NCBI RefSeq assembly: GCF_050320075.1
Contig: NZ_CP190018.1
Reading direction: 5' to 3' (one strand)
Length of the DNA stretch: 64,000 bases
Origin: Escherichia coli
GTDB taxonomy: Bacteria > Pseudomonadota > Gammaproteobacteria > Enterobacterales > Enterobacteriaceae
The position numbers were made by a program, and so were the translations under genes. This document shows, piece after piece, positions 257-55,792 of the stretch. The notes under the pieces were generated by a model. It had not been told where the DNA came from. It saw only the letters and a list, made by a program, of their open reading frames with translations, and did no database searches. Position 1 is the stretch's first letter, and the number at the start of each line of letters is the position of its first letter.

Positions 257-1177
257 TTACGCCAGAACCCTCTCTAGCTTATTCACCGCCGCCACATACT
301 TCGCCGGATTTTTATCTTTAAGCACCGCCAGATTGCGTTGCTTCCAGCGAATAGCCGGAAGATGCTGAATTTCAGGATAGCGATACCGCGACCAGTCAGG
401 GCTGTTTTGCTTAAAACTGAGCAAGAACTCGCGATCCAGATCCGTAAGATGTGACTTCAACGCCTGCGGCAGCAAAGTCGTTACTGACAGAAGCGATTCC
501 AGCGACGTTTCCTGTTGCGTCATCCCTGAAAATTCCTGCGCGTACAACGTGGCGATCCGCTCTGTATCCCAGTTTGGAGCCAGCAACTCGGCGATGGGGC
601 GGGGATGGCCTGCCAGATAACAAAGAAAACCGTCAAAGATCTCCCGCATCAGTCCCGGTTTCTCCAGCATATTCAGCACATCAAACAGATCGCGCGGGTG
701 CTGACGATCAAGCGCAGCGCAGATTTTACCGCCATAAAGATCCGCCAGCGAGACGACACTCATGGTGGTGAAGCCATACTCCATTTCCACACGTTCGCAC
801 ACAGGCATTTCTGCCGGAGGCAACAACAGCCCGCGCCAGACCGGGCTAACCTCGATCTTAATCTTTGCATCAGCGGTATTCACAATGATGCGCTTTTCAT
901 CCGCTTTATTTTCCTGCCGAATCGCGGTGATCCCCGGTCTGCCGTTCAGCGATGCAGTAATCCTCTTCAAAGCGTCGTTGATAGCCGCCAAATCAGTATC
1001 GCGATCCGCAAAGCTCTTGTACGCCAGATCAATATCCACCGACAGACGGGGAAAATCCTGCACAAACAAATTGATTGCGGTGCCGCCTTTCAACGCGAAA
1101 CAGGACTCCTTCGCCACATACGGCAGAGCGGCCATCAACAGTTTGACCTGCCGGGCATAGCTATCACGCAGATCCAT
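257..1177 (-). CDS. abiEii: AbiEii-like nucleotidyltransferase toxin (type IV TA / abortive infection)
   Basis: 306-aa ORF; N-terminal 'KGGTAINLF...DIDL' nucleotidyltransferase-type motif typical of AbiEii/DUF1814; 14-nt overlap with upstream partner gene. Confidence 0.65.
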   Translation of the reverse strand: MDLRDSYARQVKLLMAALPYVAKESCFALKGGTAINLFVQDFPRLSVDIDLAYKSFADRDTDLAAINDALKRITASLNGRPGITAIRQENKADEKRIIVNTADAKIKIEVSPVWRGLLLPPAEMPVCERVEMEYGFTTMSVVSLADLYGGKICAALDRQHPRDLFDVLNMLEKPGLMREIFDGFLCYLAGHPRPIAELLAPNWDTERIATLYAQEFSGMTQQETSLESLLSVTTLLPQALKSHLTDLDREFLLSFKQNSPDWSRYRYPEIQHLPAIRWKQRNLAVLKDKNPAKYVAAVNKLERVLA

Positions 1178-1967
1178 CTTCGACTCCTTCCGGTTTAAAT
1201 GCGCGTGGAACAGTAATTTGATAATCCGGCTCCAGCCAGCCGCCGGGTATGATTTGCCGCTTTCCCGTACCTGTTTCTATACCGCTTTGATCAATATACT
1301 GAAAATAAGGGTGTCCATTACGCCGGGCAAGGTAAAGCATCACCCGGTTGGTTTTAACCGAATGGCTGGCGCGAAGCAGTGCCTGCAATTTGCGTGGGCT
1401 GAGAAGATTCAACCCCTGAAACAGAGCATCGGCATGTTCGAACGAGATTAACGAAGGAACGCCGCAGGCGATCTCATACGCGGCCAGTTCCGGAACACTG
1501 CCTGCTAACTGGCGGTCGCCAATTTTCAGTTCCGTAGTAAATGGCGTTACATCAGCGGTAAGGCCTGACGTATACAGCGTGACAAACGTTGCGGATTGTT
1601 CAAAGGCAGAAAACCATCCCGGCAGTTTGACGTAAGCCGGAAGCGCGAGCCAGACCTGCGGCTTACCCTGTTCGGTATAGTGCGCATGACCCTGAAGCGC
1701 AAGGCTGGTTAGCCCCGCCACCCGAACAGGCTTTTCCCACTGCGATTGCAGGCAGTAAACCGCATCCACCCAATCCGGTTCACGACCCGTCCGGCAGTAT
1801 ACGCCGTGAGCGATCCGCCTGAGCCAGCCATTCTTCACATAGAGATAAGAGAGCTTACGATCTATGCCGTTGCGGGTAAGCCATGACTGGAGCAGCACCT
1901 GGCCGGGTAGCGTGTGCTGCATCAGCCAGTTTAGATAGTTTGGCAACTGTCGCCTCTGAATAGACAT
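1164..1967 (-). CDS. abiEi: AbiEi-like antitoxin/transcriptional regulator
   Basis: 267-aa ORF immediately upstream of and overlapping abiEii; size and operon position typical of AbiEi; assignment rests mainly on context. Confidence 0.5.
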   Translation of the reverse strand: MSIQRRQLPNYLNWLMQHTLPGQVLLQSWLTRNGIDRKLSYLYVKNGWLRRIAHGVYCRTGREPDWVDAVYCLQSQWEKPVRVAGLTSLALQGHAHYTEQGKPQVWLALPAYVKLPGWFSAFEQSATFVTLYTSGLTADVTPFTTELKIGDRQLAGSVPELAAYEIACGVPSLISFEHADALFQGLNLLSPRKLQALLRASHSVKTNRVMLYLARRNGHPYFQYIDQSGIETGTGKRQIIPGGWLEPDYQITVPRAFKPEGVEDGSA

Positions 1968-2261
1968 TAGTACAAATATTTAAACCAGTGTAGATTCAGG
2001 GATACGCCACAGCAAGAAATAGTTTACTTATTCCTCATTTTGTCGACTAAAAATCGACATTAAACAAAAAATTCAAACTTAATCACTTTCGGGAAAAATG
2101 TGACAAATATATGCTCGGACTGGTTGCGGGGAGCGTGTAACATGGATACAAATCAAAATTATTGCCAGCCTCACTGATGGATTACTGGTGTCAAGAGCCC
2201 CCCTTCGGGCATGAAACGGCTGGCTAATTCTGTACAGACTGTAATCTAAGGACGATAACGC

Positions 2262-5200
2262 ATGACATATCAGGCAATTTTCACTGGCTGGGATGATCTG
2301 ACGATTGAAGACCTTCTGGTCGCTTACCGGAAAGCAAAAGCCGATAGCTTCTTTGAGAATACATTTCCTGTTGCTATCAAATTTGCCGAGTATGAGCAGG
2401 AATTACTTGAAAACCTGCAAAAACTCTTAGATCTTTTGCAGAGCGAAGATGGATTCAGTAGCAATAAGAAGTTGATTGGCAAATTTCGATTGTTACCGAA
2501 AAAATTAACCACAAAGAAAAAACATGAATCCCAAAATGGACACGTCCACTTTTCTAATCCTAAACGAGCAGCCGACCATTTATTTAATAATTTTGATCTG
2601 ATACCAGAGTTTCGTATTATTGGTGACTTCCCGGTTGATAGTCACATTATCTCTGCACTATGGATTAACATGGTCGGGCATAAATTTGATGCCAGCTTAG
2701 ATAACTGTTGCTATGGCGCGCGGCTAAAGCGTATTCGTAATGATGAATTATTTAGCAATGAGCAGGATAATCCATTCCATATCAGTGCCGTGGGTTCTTT
2801 TAGCCCCTACTTCCAGCCCTACCAAAAATGGCGTGGTGATGGCTTAAAAGCTATACGTGACGAGTTGGAAAAAGATCGTGACATTATCGCCGCCTCACTG
2901 GATTTAAAAAGTTACTATCATTTTATTGATCCACTGGCTATAACCTCTGATGATCTCTATAACACACTAAACATAAAACTGACTGAGGATGAAAAAGCGT
3001 TTACTGCACAGTTAGCAGTATTCTTAAAGCACTGGTCTGACGGCGCAGCGGCATTTGGAAAGAAAATAGCGTACAAAACACCTGTTATTAATGGTGGTCT
3101 GGTCATTGGATTAACAGCCAGTCGGATCATTTCAAATATATTGCTACACCATTGGGATAAATTAGTCATTGAAAAACTATCACCAATTCACTACGGTCGT
3201 TATGTCGATGATATGTTCCTTGTAATACGCGATACAGGGACAATTACTAATAATCACGAATTTATGTTATTGCTGCAAGATAGGCTTGGCAATGATTGCG
3301 TTTATTTGAAAAACGAGCAAAAACAAATATGGCAAATACAGCAGGGCGAGCATTTCCAGGGTAAGACCACCATCCAGTTACAATCCGATAAGCAAAAACT
3401 TTTCGTGCTTCAAGGGAGGGCTGGAATAGACCTGCTCGACAGTATCGAAAAGGAGATCTACGAGCTTTCTAGTGAACACCGCTTGATGCCTTCACCGGAT
3501 CAACTGGAACACTCCACCGCAGCTAAAGTCCTTTCCGCTGCCGGTAGTGTAGGTGAAAATGCCGATACTCTGCGCCGTGCGGATGGATTAACCATTCGTC
3601 GTTTGGGCTGGTCACTGCAATTACGCTACGTTGAAACACTGGCACGAGATCTGCCTCCAAGTGAATGGAAAGAACAGCGGGAAGAGTTTTATCAGTTTGC
3701 CTACAACCATATTCTTAGGGCTGATAATCTATTTGCACATTTTAGTTATCTGCCAAGGCTGCTTGGCTTTGCTATCAGTATGAATGAATGGCAGCACGCG
3801 GAAAAAATTGTACTTAAAGCTTACGAATCCATCAACCTGTTGGCATCGGTGATTACTTCAGGTAAGGAAGTGAATATAAATGGTTGCAAAACTCGAGCAG
3901 TAAATGATCTTTGGCGCTGTATAAAAGGCACATTAAGCTGGCTATTTGTTGATGCAGCGACACGATATTACAGTCCTGACAGATTATTTCTTGATAAACG
4001 TTCAAAGAAAGAAGAGTGCCTTGCGGATACATTTTTTAATCATATTTCACAAAGTCTGACGAATCTAAAGGATTTACTGGATCTTCGCTTTGATTCAGCA
4101 GATTTTTATTTAAAAGCGCCATTGGTAGCTCGAGCTGATTTAGCAAAGGAACCTTATAAACAGATCGTAAAGAGTCAGTCGGCAGAAAAACTTGTTAATC
4201 AGCGTGATAGTAAAAAAGAAGTTAAAATACTGAAATTAATGAGCGACTCATCGCTTATTGATATTGACGTTATTAAGCTATTTTTGAAATCAACCAAGAA
4301 TACCCGACTGGAAAAAGTGGCTAAAGGAAATCGTAAGAACGAAAGTTACCTACCTTACATTTTCCCTACACGTCCTTTAACACCCGCTGAAATATCAGAA
4401 CTGGCCCCCGAATGTGTTGGATTACCCTCCACATCCGACAAAAAACCAGATGAGAGACCGTCCACCATTTGGGCAAAATATACTCAAGCATTACGCGGAG
4501 TATGGATCAAACCGACGTTGCTAGCATCGGAGCAGGACTCAGATGAAGCGACAAAAAAAGCTCGGCCTAAGAAATTCATTCATATTGGCACAGACAGGAA
4601 ACATAAAGTTGTCGTTGCGCTAACCAGCATTAAAACAGAGGAGGACGACTGGGCTAAAATGGCCTGCAATAAATCTAACTTGTCCCGTTCAAGGTACCAG
4701 CGGATTTCTGAACTGGTTAATGCAACATTGAAACTATCTCCTAAACCTGATTATGTTTTATTCCCTGAGCTTTCAATCCCGTTACGCTGGGTTAACAGTA
4801 TTGCTGATCGTTTGAGTTCGGCGGGTATCAGTCTAATTGCGGGAACAGAATACCGCCACTTAGACGATAATCAACTGAAGAGTGAGGCCGTACTTGTCCT
4901 TTCAGATAACAGACTCGGCTATCCAGCGAGTGTCAAAATATGGCAACCCAAGCTGGAACCCGCCGTAGGTGAAGATGAGGCATTATTTTCAATTTATGGT
5001 AAGTCTTGGGATTCGACACTTAATGTTAAACAACGTAAGCCGGTATATATTCATCACGGCGTCAATTTTGGCGTTATGATTTGCTCTGAACTCCAGAATA
5101 GTAAAGCGAGGATCCGTTTTCAGGGCGCACTCGATGCATTAATGGTATTGAGCTGGAATAAAGATCTAGATACGTTTGCATCGTTGATTGAATCAGCAGC

Positions 5201-5471
5201 GCTGGATATTCATGCCTATACTATTTTAGTGAATAACCGAAAATACGGCGATAGTCGCGTACGTTCCCCGGCAAAAGAACCCTTTATGCGTGATATTGCT
5301 CGTGTGAAGGGCGGTGATAATGACTTTGTGGTCGCTGCAACGCTGGATATCGACTCGTTAAGGGCATTTCAGAGCAGGGCAAAACGCTGGCCTAAAGGCG
5401 GCGATAAATTCAAACCGTTACCTGAAGGATTCCAGTTGGCAAAGAACCGCAAAAAGCTACCGCCAAAATAA
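2262..5471 (+). CDS. Reverse transcriptase-nitrilase fusion protein (defence-associated RT, DRT type 1 / UG1-like)
   Basis: 1069-aa ORF; RT motifs A 'SLDLKSYYHF' (aa ~211-220), B 'NGGLVIGLTASRIISNILL' (aa ~277-295), C 'YVDD' (aa 314-317, nt 3201-3212); C-terminal carbon-nitrogen hydrolase signature 'FPELSIP' (E836) and 'GVMICSE' (C941); divergent from AbiE pair. Confidence 0.7.
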   Translation: MTYQAIFTGWDDLTIEDLLVAYRKAKADSFFENTFPVAIKFAEYEQELLENLQKLLDLLQSEDGFSSNKKLIGKFRLLPKKLTTKKKHESQNGHVHFSNPKRAADHLFNNFDLIPEFRIIGDFPVDSHIISALWINMVGHKFDASLDNCCYGARLKRIRNDELFSNEQDNPFHISAVGSFSPYFQPYQKWRGDGLKAIRDELEKDRDIIAASLDLKSYYHFIDPLAITSDDLYNTLNIKLTEDEKAFTAQLAVFLKHWSDGAAAFGKKIAYKTPVINGGLVIGLTASRIISNILLHHWDKLVIEKLSPIHYGRYVDDMFLVIRDTGTITNNHEFMLLLQDRLGNDCVYLKNEQKQIWQIQQGEHFQGKTTIQLQSDKQKLFVLQGRAGIDLLDSIEKEIYELSSEHRLMPSPDQLEHSTAAKVLSAAGSVGENADTLRRADGLTIRRLGWSLQLRYVETLARDLPPSEWKEQREEFYQFAYNHILRADNLFAHFSYLPRLLGFAISMNEWQHAEKIVLKAYESINLLASVITSGKEVNINGCKTRAVNDLWRCIKGTLSWLFVDAATRYYSPDRLFLDKRSKKEECLADTFFNHISQSLTNLKDLLDLRFDSADFYLKAPLVARADLAKEPYKQIVKSQSAEKLVNQRDSKKEVKILKLMSDSSLIDIDVIKLFLKSTKNTRLEKVAKGNRKNESYLPYIFPTRPLTPAEISELAPECVGLPSTSDKKPDERPSTIWAKYTQALRGVWIKPTLLASEQDSDEATKKARPKKFIHIGTDRKHKVVVALTSIKTEEDDWAKMACNKSNLSRSRYQRISELVNATLKLSPKPDYVLFPELSIPLRWVNSIADRLSSAGISLIAGTEYRHLDDNQLKSEAVLVLSDNRLGYPASVKIWQPKLEPAVGEDEALFSIYGKSWDSTLNVKQRKPVYIHHGVNFGVMICSELQNSKARIRFQGALDALMVLSWNKDLDTFASLIESAALDIHAYTILVNNRKYGDSRVRSPAKEPFMRDIARVKGGDNDFVVAATLDIDSLRAFQSRAKRWPKGGDKFKPLPEGFQLAKNRKKLPPK

Positions 5472-5633
5472 GAAACTGATTTTCGCTATTAATAATCAGG
5501 GTATTTTTGCGTGAGATGTTGGTAAACATGATGTAGCCCTTGCCACTCATGACCAATCGCAGTATCTTTCTCCCGCGCCTGCAAAATCAGGCGTCGGGAT
5601 TAGCCTCCTGAAGAAATCTTATCGGCGACACAT

Positions 5634-5654
5634 GACGCGCCAGCGTCTTTTTTT
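5634..5654 (+). terminator. Rho-independent terminator downstream of RT-nitrilase gene
   Basis: Hairpin gacgc-gcca-gcgtc followed by a run of 7 T. Confidence 0.5.
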
Positions 5655-5817
5655 GTGTTGTTCGCACGGTTACATCTCAATGGTGGGCCGGGCGGGGGCG
5701 TCGCAAGACGCGCCAGTGTCCGATAAGGCTGGTAAGGCTAACCCTGCCCGGTTCCACCACCCGCGAGATTAGCCTCTCCGGTGGTGGCTTGAACACCCAC
5801 TTATCGGAGGTTGCCCT

Positions 5818-6288
5818 ATGGCTACAATCCTCACCACTGACAGCGATTTACTCGATCTATTGACCGTCCCCTTCAATGCCACCACGGATTTCACTGTCCT
5901 TGCTGACTACTGCGCCCGCTTTGCCGAAACCCTGATTGAAACCGACGATCCAGCGCTACGACTGGCGCTCTGCGGGCGGCTTCACGCGGCTCTTGCGCTA
6001 CTGCAACCCACACTACACGACCCCATCCCACCGCATCTTACCGAAAGCCTGACCGTGGATACCCTTCCCGCCACACCAGAGCACTTTATTTCCGAACCTG
6101 ATTCCTTGTGCGAATACTGCCTCGCACTACTCCAGCTTCTGCTGGAACGTCCGGCGGAACCAAAAATGGAGCAAACCCTGACCGGGCTGCTGTGTGAGCT
6201 GGTCTGGTATTTCACGGAAGGACTCAAAGCCCCACGCTGGCTGCGTACCGCCGACGGCGTAAAATTTATCAGCGAGGTGGCCGCATGA
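5818..6288 (+). CDS. Hypothetical protein (156 aa), no family recognised
   Basis: Clean ORF preceded by GGAGG-like SD; Leu/Ala/Thr-rich acidic protein; preceded by a GC-rich repeat-structured leader. Confidence 0.4.
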
Positions 6289-6425
6289 TGCAACAGGACT
6301 GGCATTCCGCCGACATTATTGCGGTGCTGAAAAAGCGGGGAACGCCTCTGGCGGCACAGAGAAAAACTCATTGCGGAAGCGCTGTAAATATCGCCAGAAA
6401 TCATCTGGCCTTCAAGGTACTTTGA
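6285..6425 (+). pseudogene. Ner/Nlp-like HTH regulator, N-terminal fragment
   Basis: ATGA-coupled to previous ORF; first ~24 aa '[24 protein letters not shown]' match Ner/Nlp family N-terminus, then diverges and terminates after 46 aa. Confidence 0.35.
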
Positions 6426-6637
6426 TAGCAAAGGCAAGCAGGCTGGTTCAGTCCAGTGTTTCTCTTCTTGCATTTTCAGAAATGGGAGGCTGGGAGTCTA
6501 TCGAAATGGTTCGTCGATATGCTCACCTCGCGCCTAATCACCTTACCGAACACGCACGGCAAATAGACTCAGTCCTGAACCCATCGGTCCCAAATTTGTC
6601 CCAGTCAAAAAATAAGGAAGGTACTAATGATGTGTAA
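6371..6637 (+). pseudogene. Tyrosine integrase 3' fragment (C-terminal catalytic-Tyr region only)
   Basis: Translation '[31 protein letters not shown]' parallels the C-terminus of the intact lambdoid integrase at 54542-55702 ('[31 protein letters not shown]'); no N-terminal or core domains present. Confidence 0.6.
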
Positions 6638-6667
6638 CTTATTGATTTTAATGGTGCGATAAGAGGA
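6638..6667. repeat. Degenerate att-like sequence (relic of tRNA-Thr 3' end junction)
   Basis: 'cttattgattttaatggtgcgataagagga' vs 'ctacttgatttaaatggtgccgataatagga' at the int-tRNA junction 55703-55733; ~85% identity, same position relative to integrase stop. Confidence 0.5.
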
Positions 6668-6789
6668 ATGAATATTGCAAGTTAACGCATTGATTTATAA
6701 TAGATTATTATATTCAAAAAATATAACTATACACATATCTATACACACTGCGCGCATCGCTTGTTTTTCGCACAATTAAAAATAAGAAA

Positions 6790-7092
6790 AAAGTTTTTTT
6801 TCGAAAGAACTGTTCACACTGTTCACCTTTCTGTTTTCTCCTTTTATTTCAGTTTGATAGGTGGTGAATAATGGGTGAATGGTGAACATTCGATTCTTCA
6901 CCTCCGGCATTCTGCCGGTGTGACTCATACCGGTGATTAATCCCCCGTACTGAAATCACACAGGGAGAAAAAAAGTTTTTTTTGATTTGATTGTTCACAC
7001 TGTTCACCTTTCATTTTTCTCTTTTAATTTCAGTGTGATAACGGGTGAATATACGGTGAAGGGTGAACAGTGGATTGTTCACCTTCGGGGAA
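6790..7092. repeat. P4 crr-like cis replication region: two ~120-bp direct repeats with TGTTCACC/GGTGAACA octamers
   Basis: Unit 1 ~6790-6900 and unit 2 ~6970-7092 share 'aaagtttttttt...ttgttcacactgttcaccttt...ttcagt(t/g)tgata...gggtgaa...ggtgaaca'; octamer is the P4 alpha-binding iteron. Confidence 0.65.
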
Positions 7093-7100
7093 TTCAGGGA

Positions 7101-7126
7101 TAAAAAAAGACCGGCAGATGCCGGTC
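7101..7126 (-). terminator. Rho-independent terminator after alpha
   Basis: Hairpin gaccggca-gatg-ccggtc followed by T-run on minus strand, just downstream of alpha stop. Confidence 0.6.
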
Positions 7127-7142
7127 AGATGAGTCATGATGG

Positions 7143-9476
7143 TCAGGTTGTTGCAGGGTCGTCACATTTTGGCAGCCAGTCGCCGTAGCTTTCCTCTTTC
7201 AGCGTCAGGTTGGTCTGTATCCCCTGTTTGGTATGGCGCTTCTCGTAATTCAGTCCGTATTCCTTCAGCATCACCGGCAGCCCCAGCCCGAACATTTTCA
7301 GACTGAGTACATTCCGGTAGCCGTTTGCCTCCATGTAGGCCAGATAGGCGTGATAGAGGTATTTACGGTAATTACGCGGGATGATACTGGCGTTCCCCAT
7401 ATACATGCCGCTGGTCTGCGGCAGGGTTTCCAGATAGCCGATAAAATCAAACGTCGGGTCGGCATCCCGTTTGATGTTCAGCGCCTCGTCTGAGTTCTGC
7501 TGGGACTGAAGCAGTGACCGGGCGAGCATCGGGTCGCTGAACTTCTGCATCAGGTGACGCACGATGACCGCCAGCTCGCGGGTGATTTTGTCCTTAAGCT
7601 GCGGGTCGCGCTCCTGCGGGGCTATCTGTTCCGGGAAGTGAATAATCACCCGCCGGCGTGACACGCCGCCGCTGCGGTCGGTGAAGCGCATCGGGTTATT
7701 GTTCACGGCCAGAATTACCGCCGGGATATGCGTGGAGTATGCATCCCGGTATTTCGGGTCAACGGACACCGCATCGCCGCCGGTGATGGCCTTGAGTCCG
7801 GCACCGTCGCCGCTCCATTTTTCCTGGTCCGGCAGGCGTATCAGTGAGAAGCCAGTTAACGCGGCACGTTCACGCGGGGATTCCAGCGTCTCGATGGTGG
7901 CCGACGTGGCGTTATCCTCCCCGGCCAGCAGGGTGGCTATTTCGGCCATGATACTTTTGCCGCTGCCGCCGGGACCGGTCACCTCCAGAAAGAGCTGCCA
8001 GTCGTAGCGGTTTGCCAGCACCATAAACAGTGCGGCCAGAATCACGTCGCGTTTTTCCGCACGGCCACCGGCGGCACGGTCAAGCCAGCGCCAGAACGCG
8101 GGGGCGTGGGTCTCCAGCGTTTCACCGTCCACCGGCGGGGTGAAATCCACATCGCACAGGGTGCGCATCCAGTGTGACGGACTGTGCGGGTGGAACGTGC
8201 CGTTCTGCGTGTCGAGCACGCCGTTACGAAAGCCAATCAGGCGGCGGGAGGGGGCTTCCTGCTGCGGAATAATCAGCTTCAGGGTGTCCACCACGGAGGC
8301 CACCTTCCCGGAGGAGAACGGCGCGCGCAGACGCTGAAACAGCCCGGCCACATCCCGGGCAAAGTCCTGTGGTGGCAGCACCTTCCAGACACCATTTTCA
8401 TAACGGGACAGAAGCTGGCCGTTGGCATCGACCGCGAGCGCCTCGCCGTAATGCTCATAGATACGCATGGCCTTTTCGCTGGTACTCATGGCGGAAAACT
8501 CCGCTTCGCTCATGGTGTCGAACGGGCTTTCAGCCGGTGGCCGGATGGCATCATAAATGGCCTTACGGGTGGCTTCCCCGCCGTACTGCGTGAAGGCATC
8601 ATTCCAGTCACCGAAGACCGGCGGCAGGGCAACAACGCCCTCACACGCATCTGCGGCTGCGGCGGCTTTTTTCTGGCCGTCACCGCTGAGGTCACGGTCT
8701 GCGGCAAGGACAATCTGACAGGCCGGATGCTTCTGCCGGGCAAGGCTGGCCAGAGAAAGGAGGTTCACGGAAGAAAGCGCCACCATCACCGTTTCACCGG
8801 TCAGGTGATGTACGGTAAGTGCGGTCGCGTATCCCTCCGCTATCCACAGACGTTTTCCGGCCTGATTCTGTCCTTCAAGGGTGTGACAGGTGCCCCTGAC
8901 CTGTCCGCCTTTCAGGGTGCGCTTACGGCCGTCAGCACTGATTAACTGAAGGTTAACCAGTTCGCCGCTGTCGTCATACAGTGGCACCACAAGGTCACCG
9001 GCACGCCAGCTCACGCCACCGGCTCTGTGTGTGCCGGTCAGCATCCGGCATTCCCGGCCGGGAAAGCCCTTGCGGGTCAGGTAGGCGTTACCGGTTCCGG
9101 GACGGGTTTTCGCCATCAGGGTTTGTGCCAGTGCGGCGGCGTTCTTCCGGGCAGCGTCTGTTTCAGCACCGGCGGCAGCCGTCACTGCCGGGTCAGCCGG
9201 GGGCAGGCTGCCGGTCACGGCAGCCACCTTTGCTGCCGCGTCGGACGGGGAAACACCAAACACCTTTTCAACCAGTTTCAGGCCGTCACCGGCACCACAC
9301 TGATTGCAGTACCAGGTGCCGCGCCCCTCCCTGTCATCAAAACGGAAGCGGTCACTCCCGCCACAGACCGGACAGGGCTGATGACGGTTTTTCAGCACCT
9401 GAATCCCCAGCGCCGGGAGAATACGCGGCCAGTGGCCGAGCGCATGGCTGACGGTGGCGGTTACGTTCATTTTCAT
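7143..9476 (-). CDS. P4 alpha-type primase/helicase replication protein
   Basis: 777 aa; N-terminal zinc-binding 'CPVCGG...CNQCG' primase region; Walker A 'GPGGSGKS'. Confidence 0.85.
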   Translation of the reverse strand: MKMNVTATVSHALGHWPRILPALGIQVLKNRHQPCPVCGGSDRFRFDDREGRGTWYCNQCGAGDGLKLVEKVFGVSPSDAAAKVAAVTGSLPPADPAVTAAAGAETDAARKNAAALAQTLMAKTRPGTGNAYLTRKGFPGRECRMLTGTHRAGGVSWRAGDLVVPLYDDSGELVNLQLISADGRKRTLKGGQVRGTCHTLEGQNQAGKRLWIAEGYATALTVHHLTGETVMVALSSVNLLSLASLARQKHPACQIVLAADRDLSGDGQKKAAAAADACEGVVALPPVFGDWNDAFTQYGGEATRKAIYDAIRPPAESPFDTMSEAEFSAMSTSEKAMRIYEHYGEALAVDANGQLLSRYENGVWKVLPPQDFARDVAGLFQRLRAPFSSGKVASVVDTLKLIIPQQEAPSRRLIGFRNGVLDTQNGTFHPHSPSHWMRTLCDVDFTPPVDGETLETHAPAFWRWLDRAAGGRAEKRDVILAALFMVLANRYDWQLFLEVTGPGGSGKSIMAEIATLLAGEDNATSATIETLESPRERAALTGFSLIRLPDQEKWSGDGAGLKAITGGDAVSVDPKYRDAYSTHIPAVILAVNNNPMRFTDRSGGVSRRRVIIHFPEQIAPQERDPQLKDKITRELAVIVRHLMQKFSDPMLARSLLQSQQNSDEALNIKRDADPTFDFIGYLETLPQTSGMYMGNASIIPRNYRKYLYHAYLAYMEANGYRNVLSLKMFGLGLPVMLKEYGLNYEKRHTKQGIQTNLTLKEESYGDWLPKCDDPATT

Positions 9477-9490
9477 GGTGTTGTTCTCCT

Positions 9491-9811
9491 TCAGTGCAGT
9501 ACCGGCGCTTTTATGTGACGGGCACAGAGTTCATCCATCACAACCAGCCCGAGAAAGGACAGCGACGGCGCGGCCTTCAGGGGGCCGGATTCCATTAAAT
9601 CTTCCAGCAGGGCACAGGCTATCTGACGCCCTTTTTCCTCACCGTGCTGGCGCAGATAAAAGCCTTCCAGCTCAGCGGCGATGGCCGCCTCCAGTGATTC
9701 AAGGGTGAGATGCGGGTAGCGGTGCTGACGTTCGCACACGGTCAGCCAGGCACAGGCGACAGCGCGACGGTAAAGGGCTGCGCGTAAGACGGGCGGTAAG
9801 GGTGTTTTCAT
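9491..9811 (-). CDS. P4 orf106-like hypothetical protein
   Basis: 106-aa ORF between alpha and orf151-like gene, matching P4 gene order and size. Confidence 0.5.
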
Positions 9812-54317: not shown

Positions 54318-54665
54318 GTGGAAGAAGAAATCTTCACTCGTGAAGAGGCAGCGTCGTATCTGAAGGTAGACAAAGGCACTATCACGCAGTGGATACGAAG
54401 TGGACGACTTCAGGCCGCAAAGATAAATCCAGATAAACCTAAAAGCCCATATCGCATTTGCAAGTCAGACTGCATTGCGGCGCTTAAGTCTGTGAGACAC
54501 AATAGCGCGGTGAATGCGGTTGATGTGCAGGAGGTTAAAGCATGTCAATCAAACTACGCGGTGGCACGTGGCACTGCGATTTCGTCGCGCCAGATGGATC
54601 AAGAGTTAGACGCTCTCTTGAAACATCGGACAAAAGGCAAGCGCAAGAACTTCACGATCGTCTGA
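54318..54665 (+). CDS. xis: Excisionase (Xis)
   Basis: HTH 'FTREEAASYLKVDKGTITQWIRSGRL' typical of excisionases; upstream of and overlapping int; true 3' end uncertain. Confidence 0.55.
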   Translation: MEEEIFTREEAASYLKVDKGTITQWIRSGRLQAAKINPDKPKSPYRICKSDCIAALKSVRHNSAVNAVDVQEVKACQSNYAVARGTAISSRQMDQELDALLKHRTKGKRKNFTIV

Positions 54666-55702
54666 AAGCAGAAGCGTGGAGAGTAAAAAATCTCGGGGAA
54701 TCACCGAAAAAGCTATTCAAGGAAGCCTGCATACGGTGGCTGCGTGAGAAATCGGATAAGAAGTCCATTGATGATGACAAGAGCATTATATCGTTCTGGA
54801 TGTTGCACTTCAGAGAAGCCATTCTCTCTGACATAACAACAGAAAAAATAATGGAGGCGGTAGATGGGATGGAAAACCGCCGCCATCGCCTGAACTGGGA
54901 GATGAGCCGGGACAGGTGTTTGCGACTTGGCAATCCGGTGCCGGAGTATAAACCAAAGCTTGCAAGCAAAGGAACGAAGACGAGGCATCTGGCAATACTT
55001 CGCGCCATTCTCAATATGGCTGTTGAATGGGGATGGCTTGACAGGGCACCCAAAATATCAACACCACGCGTTAAGAATGGACGCATCAGATGGCTTACAG
55101 AGGAGGAATCGAAGCGCCTGTTTGCAGAAATTGCTCCTCACTTCTTCCCTGTGGTCATGTTTGCAATCACGACAGGCCTTCGCCGTTCCAACGTTACAGA
55201 CCTTGAGTGGTCACAGGTCGATCTGGATAAGAAAATGGCATGGATACACCCTGATGAAACAAAAGCTGGCAATGCGATCGGAGTTCCTCTTAACGAAACC
55301 GCATGCCAGATATTAAGAAAACAGCAGGGGCTCCATAAGAGATGGGTATTTGTCCACACCAAACCTGCCTACCGAAGCGACGGAACAAAAACAGCAGCGG
55401 TAAGGAAGATGAGAACCGACAGCAACAAGGCATGGAAGGGAGCGTTAAAGCGGGCAGGCATTAGTAACTTCCGCTTCCATGATCTGAGGCATACCTGGGC
55501 AAGCTGGCTGGTTCAGTCCGGTGTCTCTCTTCTTGCACTTAAAGAGATGGGAGGATGGGAAACTCTCGAAATGGTTCAAAGATACGCCCACCTTTCAGCC
55601 GGGCATCTCACCGAGCACGCAAGCAAAATCGATGCGATTATAAGTCGCAATGGCACAAATACGGCACAAGAGGAGAACGTGGTGTATTTAAATATGGGGT
55701 AA
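54542..55702 (+). CDS. int: Lambdoid tyrosine integrase
   Basis: 386 aa; catalytic 'HDLRHT' and 'RYAHL' motifs; stop 14 bp from att core. Confidence 0.85.
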   Translation: MSIKLRGGTWHCDFVAPDGSRVRRSLETSDKRQAQELHDRLKAEAWRVKNLGESPKKLFKEACIRWLREKSDKKSIDDDKSIISFWMLHFREAILSDITTEKIMEAVDGMENRRHRLNWEMSRDRCLRLGNPVPEYKPKLASKGTKTRHLAILRAILNMAVEWGWLDRAPKISTPRVKNGRIRWLTEEESKRLFAEIAPHFFPVVMFAITTGLRRSNVTDLEWSQVDLDKKMAWIHPDETKAGNAIGVPLNETACQILRKQQGLHKRWVFVHTKPAYRSDGTKTAAVRKMRTDSNKAWKGALKRAGISNFRFHDLRHTWASWLVQSGVSLLALKEMGGWETLEMVQRYAHLSAGHLTEHASKIDAIISRNGTNTAQEENVVYLNMG

Positions 55703-55715
55703 CTACTTGATTTAA

Positions 55716-55762
55716 ATGGTGCCGATAATAGGAGTCGAACCTACGACCTTCGCATTACGAAT
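55716..55762. repeat. attL core: 47-bp identical to 16849-16895 (within tRNA-Thr 3' half)
   Basis: Exact 47-bp direct repeat. Confidence 0.85.
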
Positions 55763-55792
55763 GCGCTGCTCTACCAACTGAGCTATATCGGC
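55717..55792 (-). tRNA. thrW: tRNA-Thr
   Basis: Reverse complement reads 'GCCGATATAGCTCAGTTGGTAGAGCAGCGCATTCGTAATGCGAAGGTCGTAGGTTCGACTCCTATTATCGGCACCA' with CGT anticodon context. Confidence 0.85.

Follow-up and report, generated by a model that had tools for sequence, protein, structure and literature searches.

Two dead gene remnants, very probably joined by one old deletion, at the thrW-proximal end of an immobilised Escherichia coli defence island

How did a piece of a Ner-like regulator gene come to lie directly against the tail of a phage integrase gene at the thrW end of an Escherichia coli defence island, and does either piece still work? Both fall within 6285-6637 of the window, by which we mean the whole 64,000-nucleotide stretch analysed here (RefSeq assembly GCF_050320075.1, contig NZ_CP190018.1), and an initial annotation made from the sequence took them for gene debris marking the decayed end of the oldest element at the locus. 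That they are debris was already known. In the RefSeq/PGAP annotation used here, that of the E. coli YZLc1-3 chromosome (NZ_CP123240.1), which is 100% identical to the window, 6285-6384 is a pseudogene labelled [quoted passage not shown] and 6434-6637 is another, labelled “integrase; incomplete; missing N-terminus”. The debris is also of an ordinary kind, at the tRNA-proximal end of an immobilised defence island that many genomes share; it matters little alone, and nothing in it will surprise a genomic-island specialist. What is added here is the exact set of lesions, the C-terminal third of the Ner gene, the likely origin of the two pieces in two elements and the mosaic structure of the integrase stub. 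Taken together, the alignments argue strongly for a pair of dead gene remnants that a single old deletion brought together.

The old island is the first of several elements lined up in front of thrW (Table 1), and its DRT gene encodes a 1,069-aa UG5-nitrilase reverse transcriptase (PADLOC E = 0). Next to it lies a P4-like satellite, which besides the features listed in the table holds a HEPN-domain gene and a P4-type int, and then a P22-like prophage. Full copies of the thrW 3' end number two in the window, the one between satellite and prophage and thrW itself, and a 16-nt remnant makes up the set; the end of the satellite away from its int is marked only by this damaged copy. The island has neither the intact integrase nor the two flanking att copies that a still-mobilisable island would carry. 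No island integrase was found, and left of position 262 the window has no homology to positions 1-1743 of the Salmonella relative (L011) described below. With the distal integrase and att gone, the island is therefore fixed in place.

Table 1. Features of the thrW array and of the ner'/int' interval, in window coordinates.
Feature	Coordinates	Strand	Content or basis
Old island	about 260-6667		AbiEii/AbiEi, DRT, isrK + C4, 156-aa gene, ner', int', att remnant
P4-type immunity leader	5562-5764	+	c4-a1b1 target 5562-5614, isrK 5575-5653, C4 antisense RNA 5676-5764
Intact 156-aa hypothetical gene	5818-6288	+	ORF list; 646 homologues across Enterobacterales
ner' segment 1	6285-6356	+	Codons 1-24; HTH_35 and alignment to Salmonella L011 and E. 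coli E20
65-bp deletion scar	6349-6357	+	Aligned in DNA with two intact homologues; blastn pieces share 6349-6356
ner' segment 2	6358-6435	+	C-terminal third, +1 frame; three-frame translation, alignment
ner'/int' deletion junction	6433-6439	+	GGCAAGC, common to both parents over 5-7 nt
int' stub	6434-6637	+	67 codons + stop; protein and DNA alignment
thrW 3' end/att core remnant, 16 nt	6652-6667	-	TGGTG-CGATAAGAGGA, 1-nt deletion; aligned with strain 7/2, EC958 and window thrW
P4-like satellite	6668-16849		crr-like repeats, 777-aa alpha primase-helicase, second C4/isrK, delta, psu
46-nt copy of thrW 3' end	16850-16895		Between P4-like satellite (int side) and P22-like prophage
P22-like prophage	16896-55716		Ends in intact integrase (54542-55702)
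thrW	55717-55792		Then proA

The upstream piece begins as a 46-aa open reading frame (6285-6425) whose start lies 86 bp before that of the frame at 6371, as originally described, and the assignment of its first 24 residues to the Ner/Nlp family holds up both on a profile match and on DNA homology to an intact Salmonella gene. Residues 5-24 align with positions 1-20 of the 75 in the Pfam HTH_35 (Ner family) profile (E 2.6e-5), at 24.5 bits against a cut-off of 25. Because 5539-6356 is 83.5% identical in DNA to a Salmonella locus with an intact 84-aa Ner-like gene, the match can be taken as homology and not as chance. The remnant (ner') is 77-83% identical in nucleotides to that intact gene. Alignment to intact homologues confirms a frame break after exactly 24 codons (6285-6356) and locates the lesions: a 65-bp deletion, a TAA codon and truncations. 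The deletion is internal, removes about 22 codons and shifts the frame; the lost part, roughly positions 21-43 of the HTH_35 profile, contains the recognition-helix region, and in the intact genes its endpoints lie at an imperfect direct repeat, TGGCGGC / TGGCCGC.

The piece had been read as an N-terminal fragment in which the frame then degenerates. Codons 1-24 are indeed kept, but so is the C-terminal third, in a shifted frame. When its stop is read as Glu (E), this second segment aligns with HTH_35 positions 44-69 (E 1.2e-8, 35 bits), a match that under this reading exceeds the Pfam cut-off. The stop itself is a TAA nonsense codon at 6385-6387, where the intact genes have GAA or GGG, and the last 12 codons of the gene are missing together with its stop codon. 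By these alignments ner' spans almost the whole gene, broken by the 65-bp internal deletion and the nonsense codon. It is recognizable as a homologous remnant of a Ner/HTH_35 gene, and it lacks what a functional one would need, a complete domain of about 75 residues that includes the recognition region and is encoded in one frame.

The downstream piece was described as an 88-aa frame with a TTG start (6371-6637) that encodes only the C-terminal tail of an integrase. The frame is there, and its tail is such an integrase end, judging from the DNA match to phage int 3' ends and from the alignment of residues 22-56 with positions 137-171 of the 172 in the Pfam Phage_integrase profile (E 5e-5). The TTG start, however, is a mechanical boundary: integrase homology begins at 6434, and the first 21 codons of the frame are Ner sequence read out of frame. 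The stub proper (int') aligns with the SfIV/SfI integrase (387 aa) over residues 321-387 and is 87% identical in amino acids to SfIV Int. Its homology begins just past the HDLRH box; this box and everything upstream are missing, including the Arg-His-Arg residues and the N-terminal domains, and Trp340 and the catalytic Tyr349 (RYAHL) are retained. A functional tyrosine recombinase would require the catalytic residues Arg, Lys, His-x-x-Arg, His/Trp and Tyr as well as N-terminal DNA-binding domains, a set that int' does not have.

What int' does have is the identity to int 3' ends and the fixed spacing to an att core that are expected of a remnant of a P22/Sf-type thrW integrase. Over 6433-6667, the int 3' end and attP core of the Shigella phages SfIV, SfI, SfII and SfV match at 90-97% nucleotide identity by blastn, and P22-group Salmonella phages match at about 75% in the blastn comparison with phage genomes. 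The att remnant begins 14 nt past the int' stop, and the same stop-to-core spacing is found in SfI, which has an annotated 46-nt attP core, and at the intact P22-like integrase of the window. In strains without the later insertions a complete thrW starts at the 6652-6667 site, directly after the stub, and stub followed directly by thrW is the arrangement in most other strains. No continuous intact gene was found on re-inspection of 6285-6637, and it is likely that nothing in this interval works as a gene.

Ner homology extends to 6435 and integrase homology from 6433/6434 onwards, so that the two parents overlap at 6433-6439 in a microhomology of 5-7 nt, which would be typical of illegitimate deletion. 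How old and how widespread is this junction? A 151-bp probe covering the scar, the TAA codon and the ner/int junction was searched in 5,426 complete E. coli genomes and found a full-length match in 802 of them (about 15%); the 803 matching records include 238 at ≥99% identity and 564 at 95-99%. None of the roughly 803 close matches in these complete genomes has an intact module of hypothetical gene and ner: all carry the same debris, and intact versions occur only at ≤83% nucleotide identity, the nearest being the Salmonella locus, or at other tRNA loci. A second allele, that of the ST131 strain EC958, is present in about 545 genomes and is 96% identical. It shares with the window the 65-bp deletion, the TAA and the ner/int junction, and adds lesions of its own, a TGG>TGA change at ner codon 6 and a stop in place of the catalytic Tyr codon of int. 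Since these extra stops fall in both remnants, neither remnant is under constraint, and with disabling lesions and no protein-level constraint across alleles the interval has the character of a pseudogene or neutral debris.

The neighbouring satellite has a very different distribution. Its first nucleotide is 6668, the match boundary falls at 6667 in >20 genomes, and among the 5,426 complete genomes searched the junction between island and satellite is found in the source genome only, which is also the only one (1/5,426) to cover the whole of 5700-7150. An island in 802 genomes beside a satellite junction in one agrees with the earlier placing of the debris at the tRNA-proximal end of the oldest element.

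The stub is itself a mosaic. Its first part, 6434-6483, is P22-like (84-86% identity, vs 66-68% to Sf alleles), and the remainder, 6484-6637, is of Sf type (97%, vs 64% to the P22-like allele). The EC958 stub is 94% identical to the tail of the resident P22-like int of the window, to which the window's own stub is 66% identical. Two 3' alleles behind one shared junction imply at least one allele replacement. Could the stub and the att core then be kept for use in cis, as an arm or core half-site, or as a patch of homology for thrW phages and satellites? The mosaic and the two very different 3' alleles behind one junction do speak for recombination within the stub, and with the P22/Sf int stop 14 nt from the core, one att arm would have to overlap the int 3' end. 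However, recombination at a patch of homology requires no selection, the EC958 allele gathers point changes, and the core remnant in the window is damaged, with a 1-nt deletion and 16 nt left. Regulatory signals do not help either. Promoter-like sites number 2 against 2.1 expected from shuffles, with none above chance in the stub; terminator-like sites are somewhat above shuffles overall (5 vs 2.0 ± 1.4), and the stub contributes just two of them, weak plus-strand stems that overlap each other at 6441-6457, so that promoter and terminator signals there do not exceed chance. On balance, retention for such a role seems unlikely. A related and tentative idea, which we rate as doubtful, is that the stub and the att-core remnant make up a permanent thrW “landing pad” that captures and sheds successive P22/Sf-type phages and satellites; if true, this would explain the interchangeable phage-derived alleles at the tRNA-proximal end of the island across E. 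coli lineages.

The reading of two dead remnants joined by a deletion raises the question of where each came from. Two loci supplied intact 84-aa Ner homologues: L003, a tRNA-Asn island of E. coli E20, and L011, which in Salmonella enterica lies at thrW itself. These proteins match HTH_35 at E 3e-33, Mu Ner (1NEQ) at E 1.4e-24 and EnrR (7F9H) at E 2.8e-21, and belong to the PHROG 769 “transcriptional repressor” family. The Salmonella locus begins with a copy of the thrW 3' end and runs through a P4-type int (439 aa), AbiEii/AbiEi, a type I R-M system and isrK/C4 to a hypothetical gene, the intact Ner gene, an EFASI RNA, a frameshifted Integrase_1-domain gene, thrW and proA; it has no P22-type int. 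In the relatives at tRNA-Phe (L008) and tRNA-Asn (L003), the order is Ner, EFASI, Integrase_1 and then, in reverse orientation, a P4-type integrase. A P4-type integrase (Arm-DNA-bind_3) is thus present in 3/3 of the intact isrK/C4-hypothetical-Ner relatives examined, carried either distally or on the strand opposite to Ner. The int' stub is of phage type, shares its strand with ner' and lies where the int of a thrW prophage ends, 14 nt from the 3' end of thrW. Since the relatives carry P4-type integrases and int' is of P22/Sf type in a prophage position, ner' and int' probably derive from different elements, the defence island and a P22/Sf-type prophage at thrW. The initial annotation was correct in calling both pieces debris, as both are non-functional, but a shared origin in one element is unlikely and there were probably two.

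Two further observations concern these relatives. The EFASI RNA (Rfam RF02957, 96-110 bits) lies between the Ner and Integrase_1 genes at 11345-11478 of L011 and 11133-11259 of L008, and the segment from EFASI RNA to Integrase_1 is what the window lost. Between the conserved island ends the cargo slot varies (window 257-5471, EC958 locus L004 1-5663, L011 1730-9657): the window has AbiEii/AbiEi and the DRT, EC958 a type I R-M system in the stretch examined there, the 6 kb before the shared module, and the Salmonella locus AbiE together with type I R-M.

The two pieces might instead have been neighbours within one element that had a P22/Sf-type integrase, and a small local deletion would then have sufficed to bring them together. 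Such a history would sit well with remnants that abut directly on one strand and with an island that does end at thrW. It is nevertheless improbable, given that 3/3 intact relatives examined have P4-type integrases, with an EFASI RNA and an Integrase_1 gene after Ner, and that the stub is 97% identical in DNA to int genes of temperate Shigella phages and keeps their 14-nt spacing to the 46-nt att core.

Under the two-element reading, a P22/Sf-type prophage would once have stood between the island and thrW, much as the P22-like prophage does today. An illegitimate deletion at the 5-7 nt microhomology would have fused ner' to int', taking with it the ner 3' end, the EFASI RNA, the Integrase_1-domain gene and the att site between the elements, together with nearly everything in the prophage before int codon 321. 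The junction would then have passed down to about 15% of complete E. coli genomes, and the 3' part of the stub may later have been swapped by homologous recombination with incoming thrW phages; such exchange would explain both the mosaic and the differing alleles. The intermediate state, an intact ner with a full prophage downstream, was found in no genome, and we therefore infer the single-deletion history and do not observe it. The genes that lay between ner and the island end in the ancestor could differ from those of the Salmonella relative, whose nucleotide identity is only 83%, and the mosaic could be ancestral to the donor integrase instead of the product of later exchange.

Could the frames still be of use, as short proteins (the 46-aa Ner and the 88-aa TTG frame) or rejoined by programmed frameshifting? 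Both are open in the window, and the 46-aa frame retains its translationally coupled ATGATG start. However, the sister allele stops at codon 6 of the 46-aa frame and at the catalytic Tyr codon of the 88-aa frame, the HTH recognition region is physically deleted, an in-frame TAA interrupts the C-terminal Ner segment, and the stub is without Arg-His-Arg; given the sister-allele stops, we reject this reading as extremely improbable. A sequencing or assembly artefact that mimics a frameshift has next to no chance of being the explanation and is rejected, since the lesions are replicated across assemblies, at ≥99% in about 240 independent complete genomes and with the same 65-bp deletion in the 96%-identical allele.

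Comparison with known systems places both remnants. Like the Ner family (Mu Ner 1NEQ/1NER, EnrR 7F9H, Nlp/SfsB, HTH_35, PHROG 769), ner' aligns over its N-terminal 24 and C-terminal ~26 residues; unlike it, ner' has lost the centre (about positions 21-43), is frameshifted, carries a nonsense codon and is cut at the 3' end. The stub resembles the thrW integrases of SfI, SfII, SfIV, SfV and the P22 group in its protein sequence and in lying 14 nt from an att core that copies the thrW 3' end (46 nt in SfI), and differs from them in being 17% of the protein and a P22-like/Sf-like mosaic. The EC958 island has been published as GI-thrW, with M.EcoMIII as its methyltransferase (PMC4134206, PMC4659465). 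The thrW-proximal end of the window matches it in the isrK/C4 leader, the 156-aa gene, the ner' lesions and the junction, whereas the cargo of GI-thrW is type I R-M (M.EcoMIII) and not AbiE with a UG5-nitrilase DRT, and its stub has the P22-like 3' allele and extra stop codons.

The locus offers a clean worked example of how tRNA-linked islands become fixed in place: a once-mobile defence island appears to have been cut at both ends, one of the deletions would also have erased the adjoining prophage, and a P4-like satellite and a P22-like prophage are now filling the same thrW locus again. For annotation, the useful points are that the Ner pseudogene reaches 6435, that the stub probably comes from another element and that an “ash” CDS upstream overlies the C4 RNA.

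This CDS belongs to the operon of which ner' is the last gene, and in which an isrK/C4 immunity RNA is followed by the 156-aa hypothetical gene. Rfam scores isrK at 68.8 bits and C4 at 71.1 bits, both over the gathering score, and c4-a1b1 at 43.8 bits, just under the 46.7 cut-off. The PGAP “ash family protein” CDS (5608-5772) covers the C4 RNA and so probably represents an RNA gene annotated in error as a protein. In opening with isrK and C4 the operon is like the immunity region of satellite phage P4. A second copy of the leader lies at 10927-11167 (-), in the resident satellite and under another “ash family” pseudogene; unlike here, where the hypothetical gene and Ner come downstream, the genes that follow there are Icd-like, orf151-like, DUF5375 and alpha primase.

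The stop of the 156-aa gene overlaps the ner' start (ATGATG), so the 156-aa gene and ner were translationally coupled in one operon. Between the window and the EC958 allele the 156-aa gene shows 26 synonymous and 9 non-synonymous codon differences, a substitution pattern as expected of a live gene. Its protein matched no family in Pfam, PHROG or PADLOC, and a search of IMG/VR viral contigs for relatives or for an intact parent element confirmed none. The 151-aa protein of the P4-like satellite was considered as its counterpart and ruled out, as the two have no similarity. Over 5539-6433 the identity between the window and EC958 (L004) is uneven, rising from 84% over the immunity leader to 92% over the hypothetical gene and 98% over ner', which suggests recombination inside the conserved end module.

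The younger elements of the array gave some observations of their own. Just downstream of the 777-aa alpha primase-helicase gene of the satellite, two 123-nt direct repeats (6785-6907 and 6966-7088) are 80% identical, contain many TGTTCACC-type motifs and resemble the cis replication region (crr) of P4. The stretch between psu and int is where P4-like satellites have variable defence cargo, and in the resident satellite it is occupied by a 464-aa HEPN-domain gene (14123-15517, -), which overlaps the int 3' end by 38 nt, has no PADLOC match and is possibly an uncharacterised defence gene. Finally, a compensatory change of one T-stem base pair separates the thrW alleles of the window (55717-55792) and of strain 7/2 (L002 6953-7028), ...AATAGGAGTCGAACCTAC... 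in the window vs ...AAGAGGAGTCGAACCTCC... in strain 7/2, which is consistent with donation of the 46 nt at the thrW 3' end by different integrating phages.
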